Below, piece by piece: positions 1 through 49,610 of a DNA stretch of 64,000 nucleotides. How positions within the stretch are numbered: position 1 is the stretch's first letter; every line of letters starts with the position of its first letter. The notes beneath the pieces were generated by a model. That model had not been told where the DNA came from. It did not search any database and saw only the letters and a program-made list of their open reading frames with translations. The translations under genes and the position numbers were made by a program. Location of the stretch: NCBI GenBank assembly GCA_032718475.1, contig JAUCBJ010004858.1, positions 6,414-70,413 of the forward strand, written 5' to 3'. Source of the DNA: Nemertoderma westbladi. Taxonomy: Eukaryota > Animalia > Xenacoelomorpha.

Positions 1-174
1 AGGAGGCGTGTTGTCTGGCATCCAGGTATTGGTTCTTCACGTTCACTGCATACTCTGGGATGTTGGCCGTGCAATTATGGGAGAAGTCGTAGGTGCAAGC
101 GCCTTGGAACGCGTAATGCATTTTGTCGAAGGTGGTGTAATGGGGGTCTCCGCAAGCCTTGCAGTAACTACAAC
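1..174 (-). CDS. Exon 18 (partial): VWD domain 2 start (GDPH)
   Basis: CSYCKACGDPHYTTFDKMHYAFQGACTY...VNVKN; acceptor ...cccatccgaag|. Confidence 0.9.
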
Positions 175-9100: not shown

Positions 9101-12100
9101 CTTTGCTAACAGGAGCCCAACCGATGCTAACCCCTCCTATGCAAATGCTATCTCAAACCGCACCGATTCTAACTCGAGCAATACCAAATGCTACACAACC
9201 CGTGTACGGTATAGATCCGATGGTTCACCTGTCAGATGCAGGGCGCAGTACTAGGGTAGGAAGAGGCGGTTTGCCCGTTCAATGTGGTGCGCAGCTGGCC
9301 ACTCAAATACTCGACTGCCTATAAGAAATCATTTCGATACATTTAGATAATATACCCTGATTTAAACCTAATAAAGCCGATAGCTGTGCCTTTATCAGAA
9401 GACTCAGTAATTCAACCTTTTGTTTACAGACTGTTTTGTGTGTGTCTGTCCGCTCAACCCTAGTGTTTAAATTGAGTTTATACGAATAAACATTTTCTAT
9501 TGTTTGATTTTGTTATTGCTTTTTTGGATAATGTACTGTTTGTCTCCATACAATATCATTCATTTTTTACTTATAGAAAAAAAGCAATTTATAACCTTAA
9601 CATATAGCAATAATAAGAAATATTACATACGTCCTGCAATAGTTTCGAGCCAAAATTACGAATCTCACATACCCTGCGATAATAGTCATCTCCATCAGTA
9701 CATCCGCAGTATTTCTGATTGATACATTGAGATCCGCTAAGTACGTAACCGGCAACGCAAGCGCAGCCTGGGGCGGGGGGCGAAGAGCAACGGAGGGGGG
9801 CGTTGGGGTCCCTGCAGGTTGCCGGGCAACGGGGAGCAACTTCCGTATAAGCGCTGTTCGTGTTGCATTGTTCCGCTGCGGGAAAAAAAGACGAACATTT
9901 TATTATCCAGAGGAATCATAATAAATATTTATTTACAAAATATTTTTTATCTTTTCCTTATTTTAGTCTTGAGTGTTAAGAAAAATAAATATAATGTTTT
10001 TTTCTTCAGAAAAAAGTAAAATTATAAGTAATTTAATTTCACAATTTAAACATTTGCCCTTGACGGAAAGTGATAATTATATTCGATTAAAAAATGTAAA
10101 ATGACAATTATAATGTAAAATAACACTTTTTGTTACAATTTTAAATTGACCGAATTTCAATATTTAGTAAGAAATAGTTGTAGTTGTGGTAGAATTGGGT
10201 TTTGCGCATAAGGTCTTCAGTAACTTAAATTTACAAACAATATCGTAGCAAATACAGTAACATGTAGAGAGAAATACTAACGGCAGAATGATGGCGACCT
10301 CCAAATGATACTGTCACCAACAGATGAGGGGTAACCCATATCTAGCAACGCTCGACGACATACGGCCTCGAAGAATGCGATGTAACGGCACAATACTTTC
10401 ATATCGCCCTTATAAAAATAACAGAATATAAAAAATATGGAGTGAGAATTCCACTAAAATAAGAAATGTGACTTGAATGACAATTCTCAGTTGTATTACA
10501 TACAGTATGGCTCAACAGTATGGCTTCCATTATCGGAAATGTTCGAGGGTCAGAAATTTGGTAATGTGTGCAAAGTGCATACTGTACAACTGTAAAATGT
10601 ACGAAACAACAAACACACGCAAACCTAATCAAACACATTATTTATTTTCAATTAATAACGAAATTCTACTCACGCCATAGGTACAGACATCGACAACTCA
10701 CGGAATAGGCGCAGACATCGACAACTCACGGCATAGGTACAGACATCGACAACTTACGGCATAGGTACAGACATCGACAACTCCCGGCATAGGTACAGAC
10801 ATCGACAACTCACGGAATAGGTACAGACATCGACAACTCACGGAATAGGTACAGACATCGACAACTCACGGAATACTGTAGGTACAGACATCGACATCAC
10901 ACGGAATAGGTACAGACATCGACAACTCCCGGCATAGGTACAGACATCGACAACTCACGGAATACTGTAGGTACAGACATCGACATCACACGGAATAGGT
11001 ACAGACATCGACAACTCACGGCATAGGTACAGACATCGACAACACAAAGCATAGGTACAGACATCGACAACTCACGGCATAGGTACAGACATCGACCACA
11101 CGGAATAGGTACAGACATCGACATCACACGGAATAGGTACAGACATCAACAACACACGGGATAGGTACATACATCGACAACTCACGGCATAGGTACAGAC
11201 ATCGACATCACACGGAATAGGTACAGACATCGACATCACACGGAATAGGTACAGACATCAACAACACACGGAATAGGTACAGACATCGACATCACACGGA
11301 ATAGGAACAGACATCGACAACTCACGGCATAGGTACAGACATCGACATCACACGGAATAGGTACAGACATCAACAACACACGGAATAGGTACAGACATCG
11401 ACAACTCACGGCATACGTACAGACATCGACATCACACGGAATAGCTACAGACATCGACAACCCACGGCATAGGTACAGACATCGACAACTCACGGAATAG
11501 GTACAGACATCGACAACTCACGGCATAGGTACAGACATCGACAACTCACGGAATAGGTACAGACATCGACATCACACGGAATAGGTACAGACATCAACAA
11601 CACACGGAATAGGTACAGACATCGACAACTCACGGCATAGGTGCAGACATCGACAACACACAGAATAGGTACAGAGATCGACAACACACGGCATAGGTAC
11701 AGACATCGACAACTCACGGAATAGGTACAGACATCGACATCACACGGAATAGGAACAGACATCGACAACTCACGGCATAGGTACAGACATCGACATCACA
11801 CGGAATAGGTACAGACATCAACAACACACGGAATAGGTACAGACATCGACAACTCACGGCATACGTACAGACATCGACATCACACGGAATAGCTACAGAC
11901 ATCGACAACCCACGGCATAGGTACAGACATCGACAACTCACGGAATAGGTACAGACATCGACAACTCACGGCATAGGTACAGACATCGACAACTCACGGA
12001 ATAGGTACAGACATCGACATCACACGGAATAGGTACAGACATAGACAACACACGGAATAGGTACAGACATCGACAACTCACGGCATAGGTGCAGACATCG

Positions 12101-15100
12101 ACAACACACAGAATAGGTACAGAGATCGACAACACACGGCATAGGTACAGACATCGACAACTCACGGCATAGGTACAGACATCGACAACTCACGGAATAG
12201 GTACAGACATCGACATCACACGGAATAGGTACAGACATCGACAACAAACGGAATAGGTACAGACATCGACAACTGACGGCATAGGTACAGACATCGACAA
12301 CACACGGAATAGGTACAGACATCGACAACTCACGGCATAGGTACAGACATCGACAACTCACGGCATAGGTACAGACATCGACAACTCACGGCATAGGTAC
12401 AGACATCGACAACTCACGGCATAGGTACAGACATCGACAACTCACGGCATAGGTACAGATATCGACAACTCACGGCATAGGTACAGACATCGACAACTCC
12501 CGGCATAGGTACAGACATCGACATCACACGGAATAGGTACAGACATCGACAACTCACGGCATAGGTACAGACATCGACAACTCACGGCATAGGTACAGAC
12601 ATCGACAACTCACGGCATAGGTACAGACATCGACATCACACGGAATAGGTACAGACATCGACAACTCACGGCATAGGTACAGACATCGACAACTCACGGC
12701 ATAGGTACAGACATCGACAACTCACGGCATAGGTACAGACATCGACAACTCACGGCATAGGTACAGACATCGACAACTCCCGGCATAGGTACAGACATCG
12801 ACAACTCACGGCATAGGTACAGACATCGACATCACACGGAATAGGTACAGATATCGACAACTCACGGCATAGGTACAGACATCGACAACTCACGGCATAG
12901 GTACAGACATCGACAACTCACGGCATAGGTACAGACATCGACAACTCACGGCTTAGGTACAGAAATCGACAACTCACGGCATAGGTACAGACATCGACAA
13001 CTCCCGGCATAGGTACAGACATCGACAACTCACGGAATACTGTAGGTACAGACATCGACATCACACGGAATAGGTACAGACATCGACAACTCACGGCATA
13101 GGTACAGACATCGACAACTCACGGCATAGGTACAGACATCGACAACTCACGGCATAGGTACAGACATCGACAACTCACGGCTTAGGTACAGAAATCGACA
13201 ACTCACGGCATAGGTACAGACATCGACAACTCCCGGCATAGGTACAGACATCGACAACTCACGGAATACTGTAGGTACAGACATCGACATCACACGGAAT
13301 AGGTACAGACATCGACATCACACGGAATAGGTACAGACATCGACAACTCACGGCATAGGTACAGACATCGACAACTCACGGCATAGGTACAGACATCGAC
13401 AACTCACGGCATAGGTACAGACATCGACAACTCACGGCATAGGTACAGACATCGACAACTCCCGGCATAGGTACAGACATCGACAACTCACGGAATACTG
13501 TAGGTACAGACATCGACATCACACGGAATAGGTACAGACATCGACAACTCATGGCATAGGTACAGACATCGACAACTGACGGCATAGGTACAGACATCGA
13601 CAACACACGGAATAGGTACAGACATCGACATCACACGGAATAGGTACAGACATCGACATCACACGGAATAGGTACAGACATCGACAACTCACGGAATAGG
13701 CGCAGACATCGACAACTCACGGCATAGGTACAGACATCGTAAAACTCACGGCATAGGTACAGACATCGACAACTCACGGCATAGGTACAGACATCGACAA
13801 CACACGGAATAGGTACAGACATCGACCACACGGAATAGGTACAGACATCGACATCACACGGAATAGGTACAGACATCAACAACACACGGGATAGGTACAT
13901 ACATCGACAACTCACGGCATAGGTACAGACATCGACATCACACGGAATAGGTACATACATCGACAACACACGGAATAGGTACAGACATCGACAACTCACG
14001 GCATAGGTACAGACATCGACAACTCACGGCATAGGTGCAGACATCGACAACACACAGAATAGGTACAGAGATCGACAACACACGGCATAGGTACAGACAT
14101 CGACAACTCACGGCATAGGTACAGACATCGACAACTCACGGAATAGGTACAGACATCGACATCACACGGAATAGGTACAGACATCGACAACAAACGGAAT
14201 AGGTACAGACATCGACAACTGACGGCATAGGTACAGACATCGACAACACACGGAATAGGTACAGACATCGACAACTCACGGCATAGGTACAGACATCGAC
14301 AACTCACGGCATAGGTACAGACATCGACAACTCACGGCATAGGTACAGACATCGACAACTCACGGCATAGGTACAGACATCGACAACTCACGGCATAGGT
14401 ACAGATATCGACAACTCACGGCATAGGTACAGACATCGACAACTCCCGGCATAGGTACAGACATCGACATCACACGGAATAGGTACAGACATCGACAACT
14501 CACGGCATAGGTACAGACATCGACAACTCACGGCATAGGTACAGACATCGACAACTCACGGCATAGGTACAGACATCGACATCACACGGAATAGGTACAG
14601 ACATCGACAACTCACGGCATAGGTACAGACATCGACAACTCACGGCATAGGTACAGACATCGAAAACTCACGGCATAGGTACAGACATCGACAACTCACG
14701 GCATAGGTACAGACATCGACAACTCCCGGCATAGGTACAGACATCGACAACTCACGGCATAGGTACAGACATCGACATCACACGGAATAGGTACAGACAT
14801 CGACAACTCACGGCATAGGTACAGACATCGACAACTCACGGCATAGGTACAGACATCGACAACTCACGGCATAGGTACAGACATCGACAACTCACGGCTT
14901 AGGTACAGAAATCGACAACTCACGGCATAGGTACAGACATCGACAACTCCCGGCATAGGTACAGACATCGACAACTCACGGAATACTGTAGGTACAGACA
15001 TCGACATCACACGGAATAGGTACAGACATCGACAACTCACGGCATAGGTACAGACATCGACAACTCACGGCATAGGTACAGACATCGACAACTCACGGCA

Positions 15101-18100
15101 TAGGTACAGACATCGACAACTCACGGCTTAGGTACAGAAATCGACAACTCACGGCATAGGTACAGACATCGACAACTCCCGGCATAGGTACAGACATCGA
15201 CAACTCACGGAATACTGTAGGTACAGACATCGACATCACACGGAATAGGTACAGACATCGACATCACACGGAATAGGTACAGACATCGACAACTCACGGC
15301 ATAGGTACAGACATCGACAACTCACGGCATAGGTACAGACATCGACAACTCACGGCATAGGTACAGACATCGACAACTCACGGCATAGGTACAGACATCG
15401 ACAACTCCCGGCATAGGTACAGACATCGACAACTCACGGAATACTGTAGGTACAGACATCGACATCACACGGAATAGGTACAGACATCGACAACTCATGG
15501 CATAGGTACAGACATCGACAACTGACGGCATAGGTACAGACATCGACAACACACGGAATAGGTACAGACATCGACATCACACGGAATAGGTACAGACATC
15601 GACATCACACGGAATAGGTACAGACATCGACAACTCACGGAATAGGCGCAGACATCGACAACTCACGGCATAGGTACAGACATCGTAAAACTCACGGCAT
15701 AGGTACAGACATCGACAACTCACGGCATAGGTACAGACATCGACAACACACGGAATAGGTACAGACATCGACCACACGGAATAGGTACAGACATCGACAT
15801 CACACGGAATAGGTACAGACATCAACAACACACGGGATAGGTACATACATCGACAACTCACGGCATAGGTACAGACATCGACATCACACGGAATAGGTAC
15901 ATACATCGACAACACACGGAATAGGTACAGACATCGACAACTCACGGCATAGGTACAGACATCGACAACACACGGAATAGCTACAGACATCGACAACCCA
16001 CGGCATAGGTACAGACATCGACAACTCACGGCATAGGTACAGACATCGACAACTCACGGAATAGGTACAGACATCGACAACTCACGGCATAGGTACAGAC
16101 ATCGACAACTCACGGAATAGGTACAGACATCGACATCACACGGAATAGGTACAGACATCGACAACACACGGAATAGGTACAGACATCGACAACTCACGGC
16201 ATAGGTGCAGACATCGACAACACACGGAATAGGTACAGACATCGACAACACACGGCATAGGTACAGACATCGACAACTCACGGCATAGGTACAGACATCG
16301 ACAACTCACGGCATAGGTACAGACATCGACAACTCACGGAATAGGTACAGACATCGACATCACACGGAATAGGTACAGACATCGACAACACACGGAATAG
16401 GTACAGACATCGACAACTCACGGCATAGGTACAGACATCGACAACACACGGAATAGGTACAGACATCGACAACTCACGGCATAGGTACAGACATCGACAA
16501 TACACGGAATAGGTACAGACATCGACATCACACGGCATAGGTACAGACATCGACAACTCACGGAATAGGCGCAGACATCGAAGAGACATTCGTCGTAGGA
16601 AATCATAACGTCGATGAAGTTGGCGCACAACCCGAAGGGCCCGGTTGGGTCTGTTAGCAGCCCACACTGCTGGGCGGCGAAGGCCTGTACCTCAGCGGAA
16701 CAGCTGACAGGAACCACGGGGCCATTGTAGTGGCAACTGAATATAGAAGAAATAGAATATATACAACAGTTGATAAACCAAGTTTACGAGCAAACAGTAA
16801 GAACAGATAATTCATTACCGGATATACGATAGACCGGATAGACGTCGATCATTTTCATTAGACGTTTTAATTAAGGGTGTAACGGTTTTCGCCGCCGTTT
16901 TTTTTAAATAAAACAATTACGTTAGTCCAATGTCTATTTTGACTTCTCCAGGCCGTCCCGTCTTCAGGGTAAACATATGTAATAAATAGTATTCAAAAAC
17001 AGAGTAAGGCCCGCCGCACTCTAGAGATACAAGATGCAAGATACCAGATGCAAAAATCGTTCCCGACGTACACTAGAGATGCAAGATGCAAAAATCGTTC
17101 CCGACGTACACTAGAGATGCAAGATGCAAGATGCATCGTATTTTATTTTATATATTGATAGCTTTTATGTTATTTATTTATTGCGTTTAAAATTTATTCC
17201 CATTATATATATCATTTCACGAGAGCATTATTGGATAAATCCAATAAATTACAAGACACCTGTGGCTGGCGTTATGGCAAAGTTATATAATCAACTGCGA
17301 GATGATCCCGACACCACATACATTTGCGAATGATACTCTCATGTCCGTTTGGTACATTTGTTGCACTTTTGTCCCTAATTGATGGAAACATCCGAAAGTG
17401 CAGCGCCAAGTTTAGAAAAGCGATTGGAGCGAAGGAAAAACTGTTAGTCACACTGAGGTGCAGTATAATATAATATTGGGTGGCAACACATGCTAATTAA
17501 TATATTACTTTGATTATTTTAATGTATATTTCAAAGAATTTATCTCACTGCATCTCTAGTGTGCGTGCCTCCCATAGGATCTACATGTATTCTATAATTC
17601 GAGATGCAAAAAATTGAACATCGTGCATCGTCCTTCTTTGCATCTTGCATCTCTAGTGTGCGGCGGGCCTAAGGTGGCAGGCAGATATAGTCTGTGCGAG
17701 AAATACTAATACTGGGCTAAAAACTACACGGTTCAGAAATTCGTATTGGGCGTAAGGTATAATATTACAGCGATAATCGGGCCTTAAATGTAAAGTAGAG
17801 TAAAAAAATTTTTCGACCGCTATACTAGGGATTACGCAGAAAGCATTCTTACTATACTTACAGTATTTCCAGTGTGGTCCACTCAGAACTCTACACCCAG
17901 ACGAAACTGGTACTCAAATAGTAGCCATTCATGGATGCAAGAGTTGCGCTCCGGCTAGTCCATTTAAAGCATTCGTTACGAAACAAATACCACCCCCCCC
18001 CCCCCCCCCCCCCCCCCCCAGCTGGGATCGAACCCACGACCTCCAGATAGATGTAAATTTAATACAACTATGGCGAATTAATGGGACTATGGCTTTGATC

Positions 18101-21100
18101 TTAACTTACGGTCACTGCGGTAACGGGCAGTACATTAAAGCACCGCGGTACCAAGGATGCACTCTCTAAATTAACTTACTAGTACTGGAGATAATATCGC
18201 GATAACTAAGGATATAACTTACTAGTACTGGAGATACTGGAGATAATATCGCGATAACTAAGGATATAACTTACTAGTACTGGAGATACTGGAGATAATA
18301 TCGCGATAACTAAGGATATAACTTACTAGTACTGGAGATACTGGAGATAATATCGCGATAACTAAGGATATAACTTACTAGTACTGGAGATACTGGAGAT
18401 AATATCGCGATAACTAAGGATATAACTTACATAGTACTGGAGATACTGGAGATAATATCGCGATAACTAAGGATATAACTTACTAGTACTGGAGATACTG
18501 GAGATAATATCGCGATAACTAAGGATATAACTTACTAGTACTGGAGATACTGGAGATAATATCGCGATAACTAAGGATATAACTTACTAGTTCTGGAGAT
18601 ACTGGAGATAATATCGCGATAACTAAGGATATAACTTACTAGTACTGGAGATACTGGAGATAATATCGCGATAACTAAGGATATAACTTACTAGTACTGG
18701 AGATACTGGAGATAATATCGCGATAACTAAGGATATAACTTACTAATTCTGGAGATAATATCGCGATAACTAAGGATATAACTTACTAGTACTGGAGATA
18801 CTGGAGATAATATCGCGATAACTAAGGATATAACTTACTAGTACTGGAGATACTGGAGATAATATCGCGATAACTAAGGATATAACTTACTAGTACTGGA
18901 GATACTGGAGATAATATCGCGATAACTAAGGATATAACTTACTAGTACTGGAGATACTGGAGATAATATCGCGATAACTAAGGATATAACTTACTAGTAC
19001 AGGAGATAGTGGAGATAATATCGCGATAACTAAGGATATAACTTACTAGTACTGGAGATACTGGAGATAATATCGCGATAACTAAGGATATAACTTACTA
19101 GTACTGGAGATACTGGAGATAATATCGCGATAACTAAGGATATAACTTACTAGTACTGGAGATACTGGAGATAATATCGCGATAACTAAGGATATAACTT
19201 ACTAGTACTGGAGATACTGGAGATAATATCGCGATAACTAAGGATATAACTTACTAGTACTGGAGATACTGGAGATAATATCGCGATAACTAAGGATATA
19301 ACTTACTAGTACTGGAGATACTGGAGATAATATCGCGATAACTAAGGATATAACTTACTAGTACTGGAGATACTGGAGATAATATCGCGATAACTAAGGA
19401 TATAACTTACTAGTACTGGAGATACTGGAGATAATATCGCGATAACTAAGGATATAACTTACTGAGTACTGGAGATACTGGAGATAATATCGCGATAACT
19501 AAGGATATAACTTACTAGTACTGGAGATACTGGAGATAATATCGCGATAACTAAGGATATAACTTACTAGTACTGGAGATACTGGAGATAATATCGCGAT
19601 AACTAAGGATAGAAATTACTGGTACTGGAGATACTGGAGATAATATCGCGATAACTAAGGATATAACTTACTAGTACTGGTGATACTGGAGATAATATCG
19701 CGATAACTAAGGATATAACTTACTAGTACTGGTGATACTGGAGATAATATCGCGATAACTAAGGATATAACTTACTAGTACTGGAGATACTGGAGATAAT
19801 ATCGCGATAACTAAGGATATAACTTACTAGTACTGGAGATACTGGAGATAATATCGCGATAACTAAGGATATAACTTACTAGTACTGGAAGATAATATCG
19901 CGATAACTAAGGATATAACTTACTAGTACTGGAGATACTGGAGATAATATCGCGATAACTAAGGATATAACTTACTAGTACTGGAGATAATATCGCGATA
20001 ACTAAGGATATAACTTACTCGTACTGGAGATAATATCGCGATAACTAAGGATATAACTTACTAGTACTGGAGATAGCTGGAGATAATATCGCGATAACTA
20101 AGGATATAACTTACTAGTTCTGGAGATACTGGAGATAATATCGCGATAACTAAGGATATAACTTACTAGTACTGGAGATGCTGGAGATAATATCGCGATA
20201 ACTAAGGATATAACTTACTAGTACTGGAGATACTGGAGATAATATCGCGATAACTAAGGATATAACTTACTAGTACTGGAGATACTGGAGATAATATCGC
20301 GATAACTAAGGATATAACTTACTAGTACTGGAGATAATATCGCGATAACTAAGGATATAACTTACTAGTACTGGAGATACTGGAGATAATATCGCGATAA
20401 CTAAGGATATAACTTACTAGTACTGGAGATACTGGAGATAATATCGCGATAACTAAGGATATAACTACTAGTCTGGAGATACTGGAGATAATATCGCGAT
20501 AACTAAGGATATAACTTACTAGTACTGGAGATACTGGAGATAATATCGCGATAACTAAGGATATAACTTACTAGTTACTGGAGATAATATCGCGATAACT
20601 AAGGATATAACTTACTAGTACTGGAGATACTGGAGATAATATCGCGATAACTAAGGATATAACTTACTAGTACTGGAGATACTGGAGATAATATCGCGAT
20701 AACTAAGGATATAACTTACTAGTACTGGAGATACTGGAGATAATATCGCGATAACTAAGGATATAACTTACTAGTACTGGAGATACTGGAGATAATATCG
20801 CGATAACTAAGGATATAACTTACTAGTACTGGAGATACTGGAGATAATATCGCGATAACTAAGGATATAACGTACTAGTACTGGAGATACTGGAGATAAT
20901 ATCGCGATAACTAAGGATATAACTTACTAGTACTGGAGATACTGGAGATAATATCGCGATAACTAAGGATATAACTTACTAGTACTGGAGATAATATCGC
21001 GATAACTAAGGATATAACTTACTAGTACTGGAGATACTGGAGATAATATCGCGATAACTAAGGATATAACTTACTAGTACTGGAGATACTGGAGATAATA

Positions 21101-24100
21101 TCGCGATAACTAAGGATATAACTTACTAGTACTGGAGATACTGGAGATAATATCGCGATAACTAAGGATAGAAATTACTAGTACTGGAGATACTGGAGAT
21201 AATATCGCGATAACTAAGGATATAACTTACTAGTACTGGTGATCCTGGAGATAATATCGCGATAACTAAGGATATAACTTACTCGTACTGGAGATAATAT
21301 CGCGATAACTAAGGATATAACTTACTAGTACTGGAGATACTGGAGATAATATCGCGATAACTAAGGATATAACTTACTAGTTCTGGAGATAATATCGCGA
21401 TAACTAAGGATATAACTTACTAGTACTGGAGTTGGAGATAATATCGCGATAACTAAGGATATAACTTACTAGTACTGGAGATAATATCGCGATAACTAAG
21501 GATATAACTTACTAGTACTGGAGATAATATCGCGATAACTAAGGATATAACTTACTAGTACTGGAGATACTGGAGATAATATCGCGATAACTAAGGATAT
21601 AACTTACTAGTACTGGAGATACTGGAGATAATATCGCGATAACTAAGGATATAACTTACTAGTACTGGAGATACTGGAGATAATATCGCGATAACTAAGG
21701 ATATAACTTACTAGTACTGGAGATACTGGAGATAATATCGCGATAACTAAGGATATAACTTACTAGTACTGGAGATACTGGAGATAATATCGCGATAACT
21801 AAGGATATAACTTACTAGTACGGAGATACTGGAGATAATATCGCGATAACTAAGGATATAACTTACTAGTACTGGAGATACTGGAGATAATATCGCGATA
21901 ACTAAGGATATAACTTACTAGTACTGGAGATACTGGAGATAATATCGCGATAACTAAGGATATAACTTACTAGTACTGGAGATACTGGAGATAATATCGC
22001 GATAACTAAGGATATAACTTACTAGTACTGGAGATACTGGAGATAATATCGCGATAACTAAGGATATAACTTACTAGTACTGGAGATACTGGAGATAATA
22101 TCGCGATAACTAAGGATATAACTTACTAGTACTGGAGATACTGGAGATAATATCGCGATAACTAAGGATATAACTTACTAGTACTGGAGATACTGGAGAT
22201 AATATCGCGATAACTAAGGATATAACTTACTAGTACTGGAGATACTGGAGATAATATCGCGATAACTAAGGATATAACTTACTAGTACTGGAGATACTGG
22301 AGATAATATCGCGATAACTAAGGATATAACTTACTAGTACTGGAGATACTGAAGATAATATCGCGATAACTAAGGATATAACTTACTAGTACTGGAGATA
22401 CTGGAGATAATATCGCGATAACTAAGGATATAACTTACTAGTTCTGGAGATAATATCGCGATAACTAAGGATATAACTTACTAGTACTGGAGATAATATC
22501 GCGATAACTAAGGATATAACTTACTAGTACTGGAGATACTAGAGATAATATCGCGATAACTAAGTACTGTATATAACTTACTAGTACTTGAGATACTGGA
22601 GATAATATCGCGATAACTAAGGATAGAACGTACTAGTACTGGAGATACTGGAGATAATATCGCGATAACTAAGGATATAACTTACTAGTTCTGGAGATAA
22701 TATCGCGATAACTAAGGATATAACTTACTAGTACTGGAGATACTGGAGATAATATCGCGATAACTAAGGATATAACTTACTCTTCGTCTGTCCCGGTTTT
22801 CCAGCAGTTTCCCCAGTCGTTCGGGTCGCCGTGAGCGACTCCTCCACAGACGTCATCGTTCGAAGGGTTCGCGTCGCAGTTACCGCACATACCATCAACC
22901 TATAAATTTAGATGATATTGTATGGAGAACATTGTGTATAAAGTTTAATAAACTGGAGGTGAGGCATCGTAATTAAAGGGGGTGATTGGGAGTTGTGGCG
23001 ACGCAATTTTGTCGACAATCCGGCATAGCACACTTAATAATATGTATATAGACCTATATCATGCATGCCGACAGTAATAATTGTTAATGTGTTGATTATT
23101 TACTACAGTATATAATATACTTTTTTTGGAAATCTTTTATTCTTATCGAATAAAAGTCTTGGAAATATAAATATCACTTAATAATTGAAAGTTATTTATG
23201 ACACTGCCGAACAGATTAGTTTCAAGGTCAAGGAACAATATGGCTGGCCAGCAGATATTATCTATGTAATATCTCACACTCTATTTACACCGAAATGTTT
23301 CACATAGGAGAAGGTGAAGGTTATTCACCTCCCTGTGACAATACAGATACAGATAATTAAATAAATAAATAATTAATTTGATAAAAGCTTTTATTGAGTT
23401 TATTATCAGCAAGTGATGATTACCTTTCCAGCGAAGGTTGGTGGCAGCGCGACCATTGCGCTGTAACGTGTATCATACACCACCCAGAGTCCGAAATCTG
23501 TCTTAATCAAAACTCTCTGGTTGCAAAGTTCAATTGTGACTTTGTTCTCTAATGGCACATAAGGCATGTTCACAGCAACACCATCAACCTAAAGGTAAAA
23601 CAAAAATATCAGCAAGAAAATCAACAATAAATTCTGCGTTTGAACCTTGACAAGCTTACTTATGCCTACATGTCGCGTAAAATAAACACATTCATTCATT
23701 TTAAAATAAACAACCAGACTGAATTGAACTTACACTCAAATAGAGAAAATTTAAATTAACATAAATCTATCGCAAATTTCTCGTACAAACATATTAAACG
23801 ATTAAGAGATAAAATTATTATCGCGCAAACTTACAAATATATCTCCTCCGAAATAAACTTCTATATGGAAGCCGTAGACCTTAACATCGACCAGTGCAAC
23901 GGAGGTACTCATGTGAAGCTCCTCCCAGTTGTGTTCCCTATTCTTAACATTGACCTCGAACGACGGGATATCGTTGGCGGTATTCTTCGTCCACAGATAC
24001 TGGCAGCTGCCTTGGAAACTAACCCGACGACCATCGAAGCTCTCATAATGTGGATCGCCGCTGCCCCAACAAATACAATAACCTGAAATAACGAGCAAAA

Positions 24101-30100: not shown

Positions 30101-33100
30101 TAATAATTTTATTTATCATTAGGGCATATATCAACCGATAGTAAAATATACAATAGCACAAGAATGTTAAAAACTGTAAAATATGTATTTAATTATGAAA
30201 CAAGGCAACTCTTATGTTAAAATGATGAGAAGATATTGTATTTGGAGAACTGGAGAGACACAAAACTAGATACAATTATTATTTTATTTTAATTATTTCT
30301 AGGTAACTGTAGACTAATATGATTTGATATATATGTATATATCACAATAACAATTGATAATAAATAACCAACCACATATAATGAATAAATAATGAATGAC
30401 TATGTACTTGTATGCTAACTCTTATGTTAAAAAAATTGTATAAATATAAAAATGGTTCGTTAAAAGTTCAGCAACGGGAGTTAGCCTTGCACCTCGCAGT
30501 TTGAGTTGGCTAATATTATGGAGGTGTCGGCAACTGGATGATCACAATTAATTAGTTAACTAATTTTAAAATTAATCAAGCTACTCTAAAAGTATTAGAA
30601 TCAAATACTATTAATTAATTTTTAATTTTAATATTAAACTCACGTTGAGGACAGCAGTATCGAACTCTATAATCGAAACAGCTTACTCCGGCGGGCTGCA
30701 ATGCATTCAAACAAACCAAGCCCGCACTGGGATCGTAAGCGGCAAATACTTGGCCCGTGTTGGCTGCAGGATTGTTGGTTGTCTTCTCGCGGGCGTCAAT
30801 TGCTCTGAAAATAATTAAAACGTAAATAGTATAAGTCTTCATGTAATAAAGATAAATAAATATAAATAGTAACTATTATCATAACAATTTTTTAGGTAAC
30901 AATTAATTTATGCATAAATTAATATCAACCTATCAACCTACAGGAAAAAAGACAATATCATAAGAATGTTAAAAAAAAAACTGTAAAACACGTATTTTTT
31001 AATTATGTTGCTGTTTTTTTTAATTAAATTAGAGTTTCTTCATTAAAATAGTAAAATAGGAAAAAACTCCCATAGACAGGAAATCCTGGAAAGAAAGTAG
31101 CGTGGGTAATAGTAGCTGGGTGCAGCTGCTATAGAGGATCGGGCAAAAAATAAGGATTAGAAATATGAAGGAATAAAAATATGGATTGGAACCCAGCAGA
31201 CTCTGCAGCAGACGCGAAGCGCTGCCTGCTGTCTGTCCTCATCGCTGCCGGAATATCAAACGGACGCCAAGGTCTAACCGACGCATCTCACCTGCCAGCC
31301 CGAGAATAAAAACAACTAAGTTTGAATTTCTCGCGGAAAATTCGAGTAAACTAAAACAACTAAACTAAAGTTAGCTACAAATTTACTGCTTATCGCATTG
31401 CCATTACACACTTACTCTGGATTGTTACACATAAACACGTTGGCAGGGATGGAAACAAGTAGACTAGCTAATGACTCATCCTCGCCAATGTTATCCGGTT
31501 GACCGACATCAAAGTATCCTGTCCAGGATCCACGACTGCACTCAACAATCGGATCTGAAAATAAAAAAAATACAACCTCTTTACATTTTATAGTTTGTCA
31601 CTCATGGCGGTTTCCGTATGTAGTTCTCGTATGGCTTGTATCGCATGTACACTGCCCGGCTGCATGAGCCCGGCTAGGTAATACCCGATTATCTTCTGTT
31701 TGTGAAAGTATTTATGCAGACAAACATTAAAAAAAGTAATTATGTGCCACTTAGTGGAGTGCCGTAGCGAAAAAATCATTACCAATGTGCCAATAGTTAG
31801 TTACCTTGTTGCTATGTCAAAAATCAATTTTGCTATAAGGAAAGAAACATTGAAAGTGATAATAATTTCTGATTTTTTTGAGCATGGGAATTTTGTAATC
31901 TTGGTACTTACAAAAAAATTTGGTACATTTGCCACAATTTCAGCTTTTTTACGTCGATAAGCCATTCCACTATCTTGGTAGCGCCACAAATTTGCAGGCT
32001 AGTTATTAGAAATAATTATATTTATTCCAAAATTGTAACATTACTCAACGCCGTTAGTATTAACAGCGAGTTGTTATTTAGCACTTTACAACTTTAGAGG
32101 ACTTTACAGCATTGTATTGGCCTGTACATTTAGTATTGTATTTGGTGTTATTGTTTACGTGGTAACCCATGACGGCGTTAAGTAATGTCCCCCTAGTGGA
32201 CATTACTTAACGCCGTCATGGTTACCACGTAAACAATAGGTGGTAATTTGCCTGACAGCCAGATAGGCCTACTGCATTACCTACCGGTAGGCGGGGTATA
32301 GGCTATTAATGACCAGTAGGGCCTAGCTATATTATTATTACATGGCTCCAAACGCCACCAGAAATATAAGCTAACTTATTTATAACATAATTTATGTCAT
32401 TTTTACATTTATTTATACGCAACTAATATAATTTGTGCAGTTTCTATCACTTATAATGTATATGTACAATCATTTCGTACTGTTAAAATTTTGGAATAAA
32501 ACTACATACATACTTGTTGCAAAGTACTTTACAGTGTTCTGATCCTCGTGGATTTATTTTCACTCACTCACTAACGTTCGTTCGTGTAACAAAGCCACTC
32601 GGATCATCACACTGTAAAGTGCTACTTTACACACAAGTATGTAAATAGTTATTGCTACACATTGTAGACAATAAACAATATTGATAACTGTTCAATTTTA
32701 TGATTACAGATCACAATAATAAGTTCAAAAAACTACCAATAATTATAGCCATGACAACCAACATATTCCCTAACCGTTCTGGGGGCAACAGAAGCGGACT
32801 TCGTAATCGTTGCAATCCTCTCCGTCGGGTTGGTCGGCGTTCCGGCAGGCTATCCCGTTCCGATCGAAGTGGAAGAGAACGTCGTCCGTGTGGAAGGGGT
32901 GGTAGTGGGCGTTGGTTGTACGAGCTTCCGAGAACACCGGAGTCAGACAATCGTGGTTCTCGAACCCTAGAAATATGTGACTTTCGTTAGCATTATAATT
33001 CCAACATTAATGTAATAAATTATTCAAATAGAAAACTTCAATTTAAATATTAAATATGTTAAAAATACACGATTACAACCTTGCCGTATTTGATATTAGT

Positions 33101-36100
33101 CTATTTTAGAATATAATAATTATTGTTGATTGTTATTAATATTCAAATTAATATATTTTAATATCTACTTATACAGTCTACAGCTGTGTGACTATCTACT
33201 AACTTACGGCTGTGACTATCTACTAACTTACATAGTCTACTGCTATGACTATCTACTAACTTACATAGTTTACGGATGTGACTATCTACTAACTTACATA
33301 GTCTACGCCTGTGACTATCTACTAACTTACATAGTCTACGGCTGTGACTATCTACTAACTTACATAGTCTACGACTGTGACTATCTACTAACTTACATAG
33401 TCTACGGCTGTGACTATCTACTAACTTACATAGTCTACGACTGTGACTATCTACTAACTTACGGCTGTGACTATCTACCAACTTACATAGTCTACGGCTG
33501 TGACTATCTACTAACTTACATAGTCTATGGCTGTGACTATCTACTAACTTACATAGTCTACGGCTGTGACTATCTACCAACTTGCGGCTGTGACTATCTA
33601 CCAACTTACATAATCTACGGCTGTGACTATCTACTAACTTATGTAGTCTACGGCTGTGACTATCTACTAACTTACATAGTCTACGCCTGTGACTATCTAC
33701 TAACTTACATAGTCTACGACTGTGACTATCTACTAACTTACATAGTCTACGGCTGTGACTATCTACTAACTTACATAGTCTACGGCTGCGACTATCTACT
33801 AACTTACATAGTCTACAGCTGTGACTATCTACTAACTTACATAGTCTACGGCTGTGACTATCTACTAACTTACATAGTCTACGGCTGTGACTATCTACTA
33901 ACTTACGGCTGTGACTATCTACTAACTTACATAGTCTACGACTGTGACTATCTACTAACTTACGGCTGTGACTATCTACTAACTTATGTAGTCTACGGCT
34001 GTGACTATCTACTAACTTACATAGTCTACGACTGTGACTATCTACTAACTTACGGTTGTGACTATCTACCAACTTACATAGTCTACGGCTGTGACTATCT
34101 ACTAACTTACATAGTCTACGGCTGTGACTATCTACTAACTTATATAGTCTACGGCTGTGACTATCTACTAACTTACATAGTCTACGGCTGTTACTATCTA
34201 CTAACTTACGGCTGTGACTATCTACCAACTTACATAATCTACGGCTGTGACTATCTACTAACTTATATAGTCTACGGCTGTGACTATCTACTAACTTACA
34301 TAGTCTACGGCTGTGACTATCTACCAACTTACGGCTGTGACTATCTACCAACTTACATAATCTACGGCTGTGACTATCTACTAACTTATATAGTCTACGG
34401 CTGTGACTATCTACTAACTTACATAGTCTACCGCTGTGACTATCAACTAACTTACATAGTCTACGGCTGTGACTATCTACCAACTTACATAATCTACGGC
34501 TGTGACTATCTACTAACTTACATAGTCTACGGCTGTTACTATCTACTAACTTACGGCTGTGACTATCTACCAACTTACATAGTCTACGGCTGTGACTATC
34601 TACCAACTTACATAGTCTACGGCTGTGATTATCTACCAACTTACATAGTCTACGGCTGTGACTATCTACCAACTTACATAGTCTACGGCTGTGACTATCT
34701 ACCAACTTACATAGTCTACGGCTGTGACTATCTACCAACTTACATAGTCTACGGCTGTGACTATCTACCAACTTACATAGTCTACGGCTGTGACTATCTA
34801 CCAACTTACATAGTCTACGGCTGTGACTATCTACTAACTTACATAGTCTACGGCTGTGACTATCTACTAACTTACATAGTCTACGGCTGTGACTATCTAC
34901 CAACTTACATAGTCTACGGCTGTGACTATCTACCAACTTACATAGTCTACGGCTGTGACTATCTACTAACTTACATAGTCTACGGCTGTGACTATCTACC
35001 AACTTACATAGTCTACGGCTGTGACTATCTACCAACTTACATAGTCTACGGCTGTGACTATCCTCCAATATACTGGCGAGGAGTTCCCAGTCTCCTGTTC
35101 CAGTCGCGTCGTCCCGATCGATCCATGAACTGAAAGCTCCAGCGCAATCTCTCGATGCTGAGAAAATGTGTAAAAATAATAATAATTTATTTATTAAGAG
35201 TGCAATACAGAGCAATGTCGAGTGCGCGTTACAAGCGGAGATTTTAATTAACAGTTAAGGTAGGGCGGGTTGACCTCAGTTTGACCTCAGTGAATTATTA
35301 ATCGTTTATCACATTTTAAATTTCCAGAAGGGAATGTCAATAACTTTACTTGTACCGGTGCGACGGTGATCCCGTCACACGAACGTTTTAACATCCAAAA
35401 TATACCCTCTATAGAGTCAGACTATTATACCCTGCTCCATAAAATGTCAAAAAGTCACGAGATAACAAATAAGAATCGCATCTAAAATAAAACTCACGTG
35501 GAGTTGGTTGGGTTGGGTCGCCGTCGGAACAGAATACATTGACAGCCGAATTACCACCGCACCATTGATTCGCGTTGCCAAAGCAATGAATGTCGCACAT
35601 CTCCTCAGCCTCCATTTCGGGTGGCATATGGTAGGAGCAGCCGCACTAAAATAAAAAGAGTAAATAAAAATTACGAATTTTGCTATGCTCCAGTAGTTAG
35701 CAATAAATTGGCGAATGATGTTGGCCTTAGACGTAGTCGTACTAAATTAAATAGTCTAGACACTGCCTCATCATCACTTGGAAACTTACCGGCACCACGT
35801 CTGACTTACTGGGGTAAAGTATCTTACTAAGTTGAAAGAGCAATCAGCAGCAGCTCTCATCAATAATAAGTTCAAGTAAAGTAAATAGTTACTAGAAGCA
35901 GTTACTCTTACGATGCTCAATTAAGCGTAAAATCGCTATGGTTACGGCAAAAATGTCGAATTTATCGCAACCTCGACAATGTAGGAAGTATCTTACCTTA
36001 TTTCCTTGTCCCAGAATGGTAAAGGGAAGCATAAACATAGCGCACATCGTCTGGCAATAATTCACAGTCATTACGGCGGATATGTCTGTAGCGACAAACA

Positions 36101-39100
36101 TAGCTATCGCATCGGAATAGCGTGGGGAAAAACATCCCTTGAAGCAGTAATCAACTGAAAAATTCAATACAAAGGAATACCGCGTATTAATTAATGAGAC
36201 TTTATGAGATTAACGCGACTTAATGAGATTGTATTAATTCAGTGACTTGGACCTTATTGAGATTGTATAAATTCAGTGACTTGGACCTTAATGAGATTGT
36301 ATTAATTCAGTGACTTGACCTTAATGAGATTGTATTAATTCAGTGACTTGGACCTTAATGAGATTGTATTAATTCAGTGATTAGGACCTTAATGAGATTG
36401 TATTAATTCAGTGACTTGGACCTTAATGAGATTGTATTAATTCAGTGATTAGGACCTTAATGAGATTGTATTAATTCAGTGACTTGGACCTTAATGAGAT
36501 TGTATTAATTCAGTGACTTGGACCTTAATGAGATTGTATTAATTCAGTGACTTGGACCTTAATGAGATTGTATTAATTCAGTGACTTGGACCTTAATGAG
36601 ATTGTATTAATTCAGTGATTAAGACCTTAATGAGATTGTATTAATTCAGTGACTTGGACCTTAATGAGATTGTATTAATTCAGTGATTAGGACCTTAATG
36701 AGATTGTATTAATTCAGTGACTTGGACCTTAATGAGATTGTATTAATTCAGTGATTAGGACCTTAATGAGATTGTATTAATTCAGTGACTTGGACCTTAA
36801 TGAGATTGTATTAATTCAGTGACTTGGACCTTAATGAGATTGTATTAATTCAGTGATTAGGACCTTAATGAGATTGTATTAATTCAGTGACTTGGACCTT
36901 AATGAGATTGTATTAATTCAGTGATTAAGACCTTAATGAAATTGTATTAATTCAGTAACTTGGACCTTAATGAGATTGTATTAATTCAGTGACTTGGACC
37001 TTAATGAGATTGTATTAATTCAGTGACTTGGACCTTAATGAGAGTGTATTAATTCAGTGACTTGGACCTTAATGAGATTGTATTATTTCAGTGACTTGGA
37101 CCTTATTGAGATTGTATTAATTCAGTGACTTGGACCTTAATGAGATTGTATTAATTCAGTGACTTGGACCTTAATGAGATTGTATTAATTCAGTGACTTG
37201 GACCTTAATGAGATTGTATTAATTCAGTGACTTGGACCTTAATGAGATTGTATTAATTCAGTGACTTGGACCTTAATGAGATTGTATTAATTCAGTGACT
37301 TGGACCTTAATGAGATTGTATTAATTCAGTGACTTGGACCTTAATGAGATTGTATTAATTCAGTGACTTGGACCTTAATGAGATTGTATTAATTCAGTGA
37401 CTTGGACCTTAATGAGATTGTATTAATTCAGTGACTTGGACCTTAATGAGATTGTATTAATTCAGTGACTTGGACCTTAATGAGATTGTATTAATTCAGT
37501 GACTTGGACCTTAATGAGATTGTATTAATTCAGTGACTTGGACCTTAATGAGATTGTATTAATTCAGTGACTTGGACCTTAATGAGATTGTATTAATTCA
37601 GTGACTTGGACCTTAATGAGATTGTATTAATTCAGTGACTTGGACCTTATTGAGATTGTATTAATTCAGTGACTTGGACCTTAATGAGATTGTATTAATT
37701 CAGTGACTTGGACCTTATTGAGATTGTATTAATTCAGTGACTTGGACCTTAATGAGATTGTATTAATTCAGTGACTTGGACCTTAATGAGATTGTATTAA
37801 TTCAGTGACTTGGACCTTAATGAGATTGTATTAATTCAGTGACTTGGACCTTAATGAGATTGTATTAATTCAGTGACTTGGACCTTATTGAGATTGTATT
37901 AATTCAGTGACTTGGACCTTAATGAGATTGTATTAATTCAGTGACTTGGACCTTAATGAGATTGTATTAATTCAGTGACTTGGACCTTAATGAGATTGTA
38001 TTAATTCAGTGACTTGGACCTTAATGAGATTGTATTAATTCAGTGACTTGGACCTTATTGAGATTGTATTAATTCAGTGACTTGGACCTTATTGAGATTG
38101 TATTAATTCAGTGACTTGGACCTTAATGAGATTGTATTAATTCAGTGACTTGGACCTTAATGAGATTGTATTAATTCAGTGACTTGGACCTTAATGAGAT
38201 TGTATTAATTCAGTGACTTGGACCTTAATGAGATTGTATTAATTCAGTGACTTGGACCTTAATGAGATTGTATTAATTCAGTGACTTGGACCTTAATGAG
38301 ATTGTATTAATTCAGTGACTTGGACCTTAATGAGATTGTATTAATTCAGTGACTTGGACCTTAATGAGATTGTATTAATTCAGTGACTTGGACCTTAATG
38401 AGATTGTATTAATTCAGTGACTTGGACCTTAATGAGATTGTATTAATTCAGTGACTTGGACCTTAATGAGATTGTATTAATTCAGTGACTTGGACCTTCA
38501 TGAGATTGTATTAAATTTGAAACAGAGATAGTTGCACCTCCCTCCTCCTTGCTGGGTGAGCCAGAATTTTTATTTTTGCTTTCATTCTTTAGCTACAAGC
38601 GTTTAAAAAAGTGTCTCCGTCGATATTGCAAGAATTCAGAATAATGTAACGCAATCTGAATTACGTTGAAAAATAGCTGAGATAATATGGGCGTCCGAAA
38701 GTTGTATGGGTTTACATCTGCGTGAAGCTATTTAATTCAGTATAAAAAAACGCACAACATTCTGTAACATTTTGCATATCTATAAATAGCTGCGCAATAG
38801 TAATATTGTACACCATCTCCCTCAATACAACAACCATTTTTAGCAAGTCGGAGTCCCGGAGTCTCTATTAAACTTGTATGAAGATAGTTCGACACCTATT
38901 CTTACCGCTGCTCTGGCAGGGCCGGATTTTTCCACTTTCAAATCATTTAGCTACAACAAGCCGTTAAAAATGCATATTTAGCAATATTTGACCTCCTCTT
39001 AATTTTAATCTTTTGAATGAAATCTAGATAGAACCGCTTTCATCTGCAGATTCCGAATCTAAAAACCGTTTTCATTTTCACCAATAACTTCCGGATATAT

Positions 39101-42100
39101 TATCATTTTTCTAAGAAATCCTTCATGACACACCGATTAAGTAGGAGGGATTTAAAACTAACTCTTTTTCAAATTTCATTAGGATTATGTATAAAAATTT
39201 GGTGGGGATCCAAGTTACTGAAGGAATTTACTATATTCTAGGACATGGTGTAAACAGTGTCAACATGATGTGCTTCGAACATTAAATCCAGAGGGATCTA
39301 AAGTTGAACTTTATTAAACTTTGGCGACGACGTTAACTTTGGTTATATTAACTTTGGTTTTATCTACCAACTTTGGTTATATCTACTAACTTTGGTTTTA
39401 TCTACCAACTTTGGTTATATCTACTAACTTCATTTAGGTATATCTTCTTACTTTAGTTATATCTACTTCATGTAGGGCGGGGTAGCTCAGTTGGTTGAGC
39501 GCCGGGCCTGCAATCTATTGGTTGTAGGTTCAGCCCCGCCAGGGTCCACTCTGCCTTTCATCCACTGGGGTCGATAAAATGAGTACCAGTTAAATAACTG
39601 GGAGCAAATCTTGGGATAGGAGTAGCGCCCACCCCTACCCTCGGGTAGCAGCTATCGAAAGAGGAGCCTTCGGGTCGCCTCCGGCTTCGGCCGACTGTTT
39701 GCTTTGCTTGCTACTTCATTTAGGTATATCTTCTTCCTTTAGTTATACCTACTAACTTTGGTTTTATCTACCAACTTTGGTTATATCTCCTAAGTTTGGT
39801 TTTATCTACCAACTTTGGTTATATCTACATCCTTTCGTTATATCTACTAACTTTGGTTACATCTACCCCCTTTTGTTATATCTACTTCATTTAGTTATAT
39901 CTTCTTCCTTTAGTTATATCTACTAACTTTGGTTATATCTACTAATTTTTGTTATATCTACAAACTTTGGTTATATCTACGAACTTTGGTTATATCTACT
40001 AACTTTGGTTTTATCTACCAACTTTGGTTATATCTACATCCTTTCGTTATATCTACTAACTTTGGTTACATCTACCCCCTTTTGTTATATCTACTTAATT
40101 TAGTTATATCTTCTTCCTTTAGTTATATCTACGAACTTTAGTTATATCTACTAACTTTGGTTATATCTACGAACTTTGGCTATATCTACTAACTTTGTTA
40201 TATCTACTCCGTTTAGATATATCTACTAACTTTGGTTATATCTACTAACTTTGGTTATATCTACTAACTTTGTTATATCTACTCCGTTAAGATATATCTA
40301 CTAACTTTGTTATATCTACTAACTTTGTTATATCTACTAACTTTGTTATATCTACTAACTTTGTTATATCTACTAACTTTGTTATATCTACTCCGTTTAG
40401 ATATATATACTAACTTTGTTATATCTACTCCGTTTAGATATATCTACTAACTTTGTTATATCTACTTCATTTAGGCATATCTTCTTACTTTAGTTATATC
40501 TACTAACTTTTGTTATATCTACAAACTTTGGTTATATCTACTAACTTTGGTTATATCTACTAACTTTGTTATATCTACTCCGTTTAGATATATATACTAA
40601 CTTTGTTATATCTACTCCGTTTAGATATATCTACTAACTTTGTTATATCTACTTCATTTAGGCATATCTTCTTACTTTAGTTAAATCTACTTCATTTAGG
40701 CATATCTTCTTACTTTAGTTATATCTACTTCATTTAGGTATATCTTCTTACTTTAGTTATATCTACTTCATTTAGGTATATCTTCTTACTTTAGTTATAT
40801 CTACGAACTTTGGTTATATCTTCTTCCTTTAGTTATATCTACTAACTTTGTTATATCTACTCCGTTTAGCTATATCTACTAACTCTGGTTACATCTACTC
40901 CCTTTAGTTATATCTATTCCATTTAGGTATATCTTCTTCCTTTAGTTATATCTACTCCGTTAGGCATATCTTCTTCCTTTAGTTATATCTACTCCATTAG
41001 GTTATATCAACGCAGTTTGTTTATATTATATACGAATATATTTAGGTTATAGTTACTCATTTTGTTATATAGACTTACTTTTGTTATTCCCTATGGTTAT
41101 ATATCTACTCACTTTGGTTATATCTTGGATTTGATGGATCTATCCCGCTCGTGTCCAGGTTATTCTCAGCATCTTCATCTGACGTAACTCCTTCAAAGGT
41201 TTCCAATCCATCTGAAAGTTACAAGAGAGTTTTTATACAGAATTACATTCAATGTATTTGGCTCTAATCTCGGACATTCCGCATTATTACATTCAATGTA
41301 TTTGGCTCTAATCTCGGACATTCCGCATTATTACATTCAATGTATTTGGCTCTAATCTCGCACATTCTGCATTATTACATTCAATGTATTTGGCTCTAAT
41401 CTCGGACATTCCGCATTATTACATTCAATGTATTCGGCTCTAATCTCGGACATTCCGCATTATTACATTCAATGTATTTGGCTCTAATCTTTGACATTCC
41501 CCATTATTACATTCAATGTATTTAGCTCTAATCTCGGACATTCTGCATTATTAATTCAATGTATTTGGCTCTAATCTTTGACATTCCCCATTATTACATT
41601 CAATGTATTTAGCTCTAATCTCGGACATTCTGCATTATTAATTCAATGTATTTGGCTCTAATCTCGAACATTCCGCATTATTACATTCAATGTATTTGGC
41701 TCTAATCTCGGACATTCTGCATTATTAATTCAATGTATTTGGCTCTAATCTCGGACATTCCGCATTATTAATTCAATGTATTTGGCTCTAATCTCGGACA
41801 TTCCGCATTATTACATTCAATGTATTTGGCTCTAATCTCGGACATTCCGCATTATTACATTCAATGTATTTGGCTCTAATCTCGGACATTCCGCATTATT
41901 ACATTCAATGTATTTGGCTCTAATCGCGGACATTCCGCATTATTAGATTCAATTTATTTGGCTCTAATCTCGGACATTCCGCATTATTAGATTCAATTTA
42001 TTTGGCTCTAATCTCGGACATTCCGCATCATTACATTCAATGTATTTGGCTCTAATCTCGGACATTCCGCATTATTACATTCAATGTATTTGGCTCTAAT

Positions 42101-49464: not shown

Positions 49465-49610
49465 CTGCAACATTACAATATCACTTTAATTTGCTGTATG
49501 GTACTAGCTCAGTATAATGATTGAAGTACCTGATCTAATCCCTTAAACTTGATGCCATTTAACTTCTAAAATTAAATTTTGGAATTCCACTAAATATTGT
49601 GGGGAAGGGG

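Follow-up and report, generated by a model that had tools for sequence, protein, structure and literature searches.

The window analysed here is a stretch of 64,000 nucleotides from the genome of the xenacoelomorph Nemertoderma westbladi (GenBank assembly GCA_032718475.1, contig JAUCBJ010004858.1, positions 6,414 to 70,413 of the forward strand), and all positions below are counted from its first base. On the minus strand it carries a predicted gene for a protein of the FCGBP/mucin type. At five of the 17 donors (5' splice sites) of this gene, those that follow exons 2, 5, 9, 13 and 14, the intron opens with a minisatellite whose units repeat the donor. Together these five arrays amount to 17.7 kb, with 59-211 units each. 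Long tandem repeats are abundant in the window as a whole: eleven arrays of more than 600 bp, as delimited by Tandem Repeats Finder (TRF), cover 28,163 of the 64,000 bases (44%). It should be remembered that every P value given for the arrays describes a pattern within this one gene and not a genome-wide enrichment, and that none of these values allows for the choice of the window, which was picked for the pattern.

The exons of the host gene (Table 1) were predicted from open frame and domain homology. All 17 introns of the model run from GT to AG, the spliced frame of 959 residues is free of stops, and the frame is intact if the first donors are used. Pfam domains recognised in the predicted protein are WSC, three copies of Mucin2_WxxW, VWD, C8, TIL, TILa/EGF and a second VWD, and the N-terminus is signal-like. 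The best 150 of 940 HMMER matches include no orthologue and comprise only FCGBP/mucin-like proteins with 32-47% identity. A PDB search matched exon 14 to chains of FCGBP, MUC2, MUC5AC and MUC5B; with exons 9 and 5 as queries, the same database returned chance matches only. Word searches with exons 11 and 6 found no orthologue, which is weak evidence. From its sequence, the product is predicted to be a secreted FCGBP/mucin-like protein of an animal.

Table 1. Positions in the window of the predicted host gene, of its exons discussed in the text and of its long tandem arrays.
Feature	Position	Strand	Remarks
Host gene, FCGBP/mucin-like	1..49473	-	18 predicted exons in the window; gene continues past base 1
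Exon 2	41113..41211	-	first 19-bp unit made up of the final 13 nt and GTGAGT
19-bp donor array	39719..41125	-	~75 units; TRF 39719-40993, degenerate copies on to 41125
Exon 5	35041..35157	-	WxxW domain 1, first half; 3' end ambiguous between GTAAGT (35040) and the weak GTATAT (35073)
33-bp donor array	33205..35062	-	59 units, of which 50 have 33 nt, 8 have 24 nt and one is partial
Exon 9	28899..29077	-	WxxW domain 3; final 15 nt open the 35-bp unit
35-bp donor array	25006..28917	-	112 units; distal copies diverged, with better-consensus donors
Exon 13	22781..22899	-	end of VWD
52-bp donor array	18183..22781	-	92 units; exact start at donor (1 exon nt); same 9-nt donor motif bounds both ends
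Exon 14	16562..16736	-	C8, first half; final 20 nt encode the conserved C-x-F-D-x-C region
28-bp donor array	10668..16581	-	211 units; 1171-nt exact internal block duplication
Exon 15	10282..10408	-	C8, second half; brings exon 14 and the TIL exon into frame
44-bp array	41242..42952	-	ends 30 nt short of exon-2 acceptor; no acceptor copy inside
34-bp array	36219..38514	-	ends 64 nt short of exon-3 acceptor
52-bp array	1957..3574	-	ends 111 nt short of exon-17 acceptor

Array positions were taken from TRF, and units were counted by wrap-around alignment. The preliminary description of this DNA had named five unrelated arrays with units of 19, 33, 35, 52 and 28 bp, and both TRF and blastn bear this out: with three units per array as queries, blastn found no cross-array match of at least 14 nt. 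The same result rules out a common transposon-like unit behind the arrays. Our exon model also reproduces the exon numbering of that description and the donors it placed inside the units, which are GTGAGT, GTAAGT, GTAGGC, GTAAGT and GTGAGT for exons 2, 5, 9, 13 and 14, respectively.

Arrays of this kind do have a name. Where the preliminary description knew of no feature class, the available parts of two sources describe 'mirage' minisatellites, tandem duplications of exon-intron boundaries that were named in the Adh3 gene of lancelets and reported there also in the globin genes BflGb6 and BflGb9, in troponin C and in PGBD5 (PMC3087553, PMC3902484); human single cases, considered below, can be added. 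Several features that characterise mirages are present here. The arrays start 13, 22, 19 (15 exact), 1 and 20 nt inside exons 2, 5, 9, 13 and 14. At exons 2, 9 and 14 the unit spans the boundary, with 13, 15 and 20 exon nucleotides plus the donor; at exon 13 the array starts on the donor with a single exon nucleotide, and at exon 5 it starts at the donor with an exon share of either 22 nt or none. Four units had been said to carry the last 13-22 nt of their exons, and this stands for exons 2, 9 and 14 (13, 15-19 and 20 nt), whereas the 22 nt at exon 5 may be derived from the array. Splice signals are kept in many, and not in all, of the intron copies, and the units evolve in concert, with diverged copies at the boundaries.

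How well the donor is kept can be counted. Downstream units of the 19-, 33-, 35-, 52- and 28-bp arrays retain GT at the donor slot in 62/74, 57/58, 104/111, 90/91 and 209/210 cases, and the exact hexamer of the true donor in 0/74, 44/58, 92/111, 85/91 and 104/210. The earlier figure of ~58-210 tandem donor copies per intron is therefore right for GT, which occupies nearly every slot, and too high for identical hexamers. With 79% matches the 19-bp array looks the oldest, and its GTGAGT hexamer survives only in the exon copy. Copies of its unit resume at 39333-39464, past an insertion of ~250 nt, so that a small element probably split the exon-2 array, whose true length would exceed the scored one.

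Exact internal blocks occur in all five arrays, the largest (1171 nt, at an offset of 1946 nt) in the 28-bp array, as do families of variant units; both are as expected of unequal exchange. Diverged units lie distally in the 35- and 33-bp arrays and proximally in the 19-bp array. A steady change in likeness to the exon copy from one end of an array to the other was rejected as a general pattern, being clear only in the 33-bp array.

Whether the exon end gave rise to the array or the array to the exon end can be judged from the protein. In the 28-bp unit, the exon nucleotides code for C-x-F-D-x-C, a region that aligns with the C8 domains of FCGBP, and those of the 35-bp unit align to a conserved WxxW position. 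Because these units contain conserved C8 and WxxW codons, these two arrays came from the junction and not the exon from the array. At exons 14 and 9 the alignments thus indicate a unit derived from genuine exon sequence; exon 2 has no homologue with which to align it, and exon 5 is ambiguous. Removal of the arrays leaves introns 5, 9 and 14 with 238, 247 and 259 nt, and the shortest array-free intron has 246 nt. The first unit of the 52-bp array opens on the donor, and its 9-nt donor motif recurs at the far end of the array; such bounds would fit a first duplication between short direct repeats.

At exon 5 the boundary itself may have moved. A degenerate first unit begins 33 nt upstream of the GTAAGT at 35040, where the weak GTATAT at 35073 lies in frame, so the 22 exon nucleotides of the 33-bp unit may be array-derived; exon 5 may, in other words, have captured one 33-nt unit. 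Against a WxxW-like profile built from 23 domains in 8 of 150 homologues, the two possible exon ends score 28.8 and 29.2 bits, a tie. The distance to the first cysteine amounts to 20 residues in the long form of the exon and 9 in the short form, compared with 8-14 in the homologues.

Intron gain by tandem duplication, the Rogers model, is a related idea, for which the available part of PMC2812944 points to internal tandem repeats in human segmental duplications. In that model, too, repeats at exon-intron borders are able to shift gene structure, as the possible capture of a unit by exon 5 would. The difference is that the introns here are not built from arrays: they keep 238-1446 nt of unrelated DNA and an acceptor of their own. 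We rejected the formation of these introns from the arrays for the same reason, as the acceptors lie 238-1446 nt or more past the array ends, in unrelated DNA. There is one faint hint of an intron origin by duplication. The intron part of the 35-bp unit (28898-28879) resembles the head of exon 10 (24758-24736), with a shuffle P of 0.024, uncorrected; such a likeness between unit and next exon head was seen in this one array of the five, and none of 15 other exon heads scores as high.

Could so many arrays have come to lie at donors by chance? Of the nine large arrays in the gene, five have their start no more than 25 nt from one of the 17 donors (P 2.7e-7; 2.1e-6 if transposon and zinc-finger DNA is left out). 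When arrays may be placed only within the intron that holds them, P is 2.5e-6 to 5.7e-6 for a distance of 25 nt and 7.7e-5 to 1.7e-4 for 50 nt, depending on masking. When all 21 merged TRF loci in the gene are counted, small ones included, 5/21 lie at donors and P is 3.7e-5 to 2.5e-4. The recurrent amplification of splice junctions proposed in the preliminary description is upheld to this extent, that donor arrays exceed chance within the gene under each null tried. The window could still be a chance extreme of a minisatellite-rich genome with no preference for donors: 44% of it is long minisatellite, and it was selected for its pattern from a very large scan. With P at or below 2.5e-4 under every null, however, and with several such genes reported in lancelets in the available parts of PMC3087553 and PMC3902484, we consider this very improbable. 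The literature searched, which covers few subscription papers, yielded no genome-wide test of minisatellite enrichment at donors.

Other sequencing data speak to whether the arrays exist. Contigs were available from three runs, here X1, X2 and X3, which represent two samples and two studies; X1 may be the source of the assembly. The 52-bp unit is a circular contig of high depth in all three runs. Similarly, contigs of all three join unique intron DNA to distal 35-bp units, including a tandem junction, and these distal units carry a copy of the exon tail plus donor 3.9 kb from exon 9. These two arrays are therefore not inventions of the assembly. The 52-bp contig is 55 times as deep as unique DNA in X1, 26 times in X2 and 30 times in X3; please note that depth is not copy number. 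A further run, X4 (share 0.06), covers dispersed repeats only. Repeats of this type, in very high copy (summed contig depth up to ~275,000), lie at 22966-23042, ~70 nt upstream of exon 13, and at 24121-24582.

The preliminary description had advised looking for the arrays in raw data. Contigs do contain the 52-bp unit and distal units of the 35-bp array; no contig listed bridges exon 13 into its array, a result that is uninformative, as 22812-22965 is uncovered in every run. This lack of a bridge is what could be held in favour of the arrays being assembly artefacts at exon ends. Set against the circular contig, the distal joins and the structured unit variants found in every array, that explanation has next to no credibility for us. 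In the second sample, 15 substitutions were found in 1994 covered nucleotides, 582 of them exonic, and the single exonic substitution is synonymous (P 0.04), a pattern that gives weak support to a working gene.

The comparison with known systems is instructive. According to the available parts of PMC3087553 and PMC3902484, lancelet mirages are unstable in length and harmless to splicing, and the mechanism that generates them is unclear. They resemble the present arrays in that exon-intron boundaries are duplicated into the intron, in their concerted evolution with diverged boundary copies, in unit length, which ranges over 10-72 bp in lancelet Adh3 and 19-52 bp here, and in that one gene, PGBD5, can carry more than one such array, namely two. 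They differ in number, with five arrays in the present gene, and in size, with 2-7 units in the lancelet globins and PGBD5 as reported there against 59-211 (1.4-5.9 kb) here. In addition, all five arrays described here are on the donor side, whereas the lancelet cases include acceptors.

In humans, the 37-bp variable number tandem repeat (VNTR) in intron 7 of F7 has a first unit that straddles the exon-intron border, and splicing takes only the most upstream donor; IFI6 (6-16), CBS IVS13, LMNB2 and PDGF are presented as similar in the available part of the same source (PMC1557585). Shared with our arrays are the boundary-spanning first unit and the identical pseudo-donors that follow it. The cases of the F7 type, as far as that part of the source goes, have one array per gene, 5-25 copies and tested splicing, whereas this gene has five arrays, up to 211 copies and predicted exons. 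The 25-bp VNTR in intron 18 of human ABCA7 starts on the donor GT, as the 52-bp array does here, and is a single locus (PMC5954066, available part). The arrays belong, then, to a known class, and five of 17 exon ends in one gene make this an unusually dense case of it.

The effect of the arrays on splicing can be approached from their composition. A recursive-splicing (ratchet) site consists of a polypyrimidine tract and YAG with GT directly after it. Counts of YAG/GT in the 19-, 33-, 35-, 52- and 28-bp arrays are 1, 0, 8, 0 and 0, and none has at least 70% pyrimidines upstream, so the suggestion that the arrays serve as recursive-splicing devices finds no candidate site in any of them. Selection as U1-loading devices, also suggested earlier, sits badly with the variability of the donor positions, which exceeds that of the rest of the unit in two of the five arrays (0.119 vs 0.033 and 0.272 vs 0.069) and is lower in three. 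Matches to a U1 consensus average 6.2 at array-bearing donors and 7.0 at the others (P 0.12). Four of the five unit lengths are not multiples of three; use of a later donor would therefore shift the frame in four arrays, and read-through of these four encounters a stop within 2-49 codons. In the exon-5 frame the 33-bp array stays open over 627 codons. Because 12 of its 17 distinct substitutions are non-synonymous and the chance of meeting no stop is 0.5, it gives no clear sign of coding selection.

These results bear on the proposal that selection maintains the arrays because they regulate splicing, be it through U1 loading, the definition of weak exons or recursive or variable splicing; in one form of it, the 33-bp array would supply in-frame inserts of 11 residues that contain cysteine. 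The slightly weaker array-bearing donors agree with it, as do the long stop-free frame of the 33-bp array, whose length variants (33 and 24) keep the frame, and the report that VNTR length alters splicing of ABCA7 (PMC5954066, available part). We nevertheless judge such a function improbable, given that no YAG/GT site has a pyrimidine tract, that the donor slots are the more variable part of the unit in two arrays and that most substitutions in the 33-bp array change a residue. Contig depth, a weak measure, adds a hint that the copy number of the 52-bp unit is about half in the second sample.

Further long arrays lie in the window. Three of the other four in the gene end 30-111 nt before an acceptor (Table 1; own-intron P 1.3e-4 to 1.0e-3, post hoc), and the fourth is mid-intron. 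Read on the plus strand, the 52-bp array at 1957-3574 opens at 1957 on a donor-like CAG/GT motif (unit score P 0.045, uncorrected), and it might belong to an antisense transcript such as a nested zinc-finger gene. An open frame of 715 codons at 7177-9321 (plus strand) lies antisense in intron 16, with a weak match to C2H2 zinc fingers and 21-bp coding repeats. Outside the gene, a 44-bp array at 55249-57157 (minus strand) opens on a donor-like AG/GT motif and ends on AG, and is followed by a stretch of 160 nt that ends in a strong donor at 55088; a 37-bp array at 52164-54420, on the same strand, ends in CAG. The two could be a donor array and an acceptor array of non-coding exons, with motif scores that do not differ significantly from those of shuffles.

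The remaining features can be listed briefly. Intron 1 of the host gene contains, at 43500-48900 on the plus strand, pieces of a Pao/BEL-type retroelement (DUF1759, Peptidase_A17), as well as another gag-like frame, in which a zinc knuckle is weakly recognisable. An intronless VPS4 ATPase gene at 58491-59792 (minus strand) is 54-70% identical to the 120 matches listed. In a tree of 44 rows (43 of these matches and the window), with identities of at most 72%, it stands on a long branch without a supported clade, and is possibly a retrocopy or the product of a fast-evolving lineage. Lastly, an open frame of 356 codons at 62931-63998 (plus strand) is cut by the window end and has no Pfam match at E 0.1; its Trp-rich repeats resemble those of a beta-propeller lectin.

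How, then, did the donor arrays arise? We think it rather probable, and favour the account, that junction duplications biased to exon edges were enlarged by ordinary minisatellite expansion and tolerated through first-donor choice. To begin with, a stretch of 19-52 bp across or at a junction would have been duplicated in tandem, as the protein alignments indicate for exons 14 and 9 and as is likely for exons 2 and 13. Unequal exchange and slippage would then have grown these dimers to kilobases, a step to which the block duplications and the homogenised variant units point. If the most upstream donor is used, by analogy with the human and lancelet experiments, added copies would be spliced out and so be nearly neutral. 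Selection would finally filter the survivors, with arrays inside exons purged and donor-covering arrays kept. Short arrays over a branch point or acceptor would be purged as well, and three arrays do stop 30-111 nt short of an acceptor.

Several observations weigh against this account. Arrays at five of 17 donors exceed what neutral tolerance alone would give, so that an unexplained seeding bias must be assumed; the excess near exon edges would need a mutational bias towards those edges. The final 30 nt of array-bearing exons have a G+C content of 0.46, against 0.49 in other exons (P 0.71), and since these exon tails are not richer in G+C, a simple seeding rule of that type is not supported. 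Of the 90 downstream donors in the 52-bp array, 84 fit the U1 consensus better than the true donor does, and use of the first donor is therefore not guaranteed. Human cases also depart from strict first-donor use: the available part of PMC1557585 reports some use of the next donor copies in IFI6 and CBS, and that of PMC5954066 a minor retention of one unit and length-dependent exon skipping in ABCA7. Mirages over acceptors in lancelets have units of 150-160 bp (PMC3087553, available part), so an acceptor filter would hold for short units only.

A specific version of the bias that the favoured account leaves unexplained is a DNA lesion coupled to splicing; the preliminary description had suggested seeding of this sort, with the re-insertion of small junction circles as another possible route. 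In the germ line, DNA would break or slip precisely at the 5' splice site as a result of polymerase pausing, of R-loops or of the assembly of the spliceosome there, and repair would leave short tandem duplications. The starts of all five arrays, within 22 nt of a donor and in the 52-bp array on it, would follow naturally, as would the ends of the three arrays within 111 nt of an acceptor, and the available part of PMC3087553, which calls the origin of mirages unclear, leaves room for it. On the other hand, six of the 11 long arrays lie away from any modelled donor, and in these six neither donor-like units (P 0.17-0.77 against shuffles) nor acceptor-like units are significant on the gene strand. 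A secreted mucin-like gene would, moreover, have no obvious germ-line transcript, and the combination of R-loop, splice site, tandem duplication and minisatellite was not met in the literature searched by title and start of abstract. We regard such a lesion as possible but unlikely.

Mirages are a known class that has received little study. For annotation, please note that the arrays inflate their introns ~4- to 24-fold and introduce hundreds of false donors. Five donor arrays with up to 211 copies are a strong natural test of first-donor scanning, to be compared with the 5-9 copies of F7, and the 52-bp array is the sharpest test case because its true donor is a poorer match to U1 than 84 of the 90 that follow it. 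More speculatively, and with considerable doubt on our part, splicing might leave a mutational footprint of its own: a process of donor recognition would seed duplications, here at five of 17 donors, and would have moved the end of exon 5 by one 33-nt unit. If the excess at donors holds genome-wide, it would mean a mutational process aimed at exon edges and a route by which exon ends may slide.

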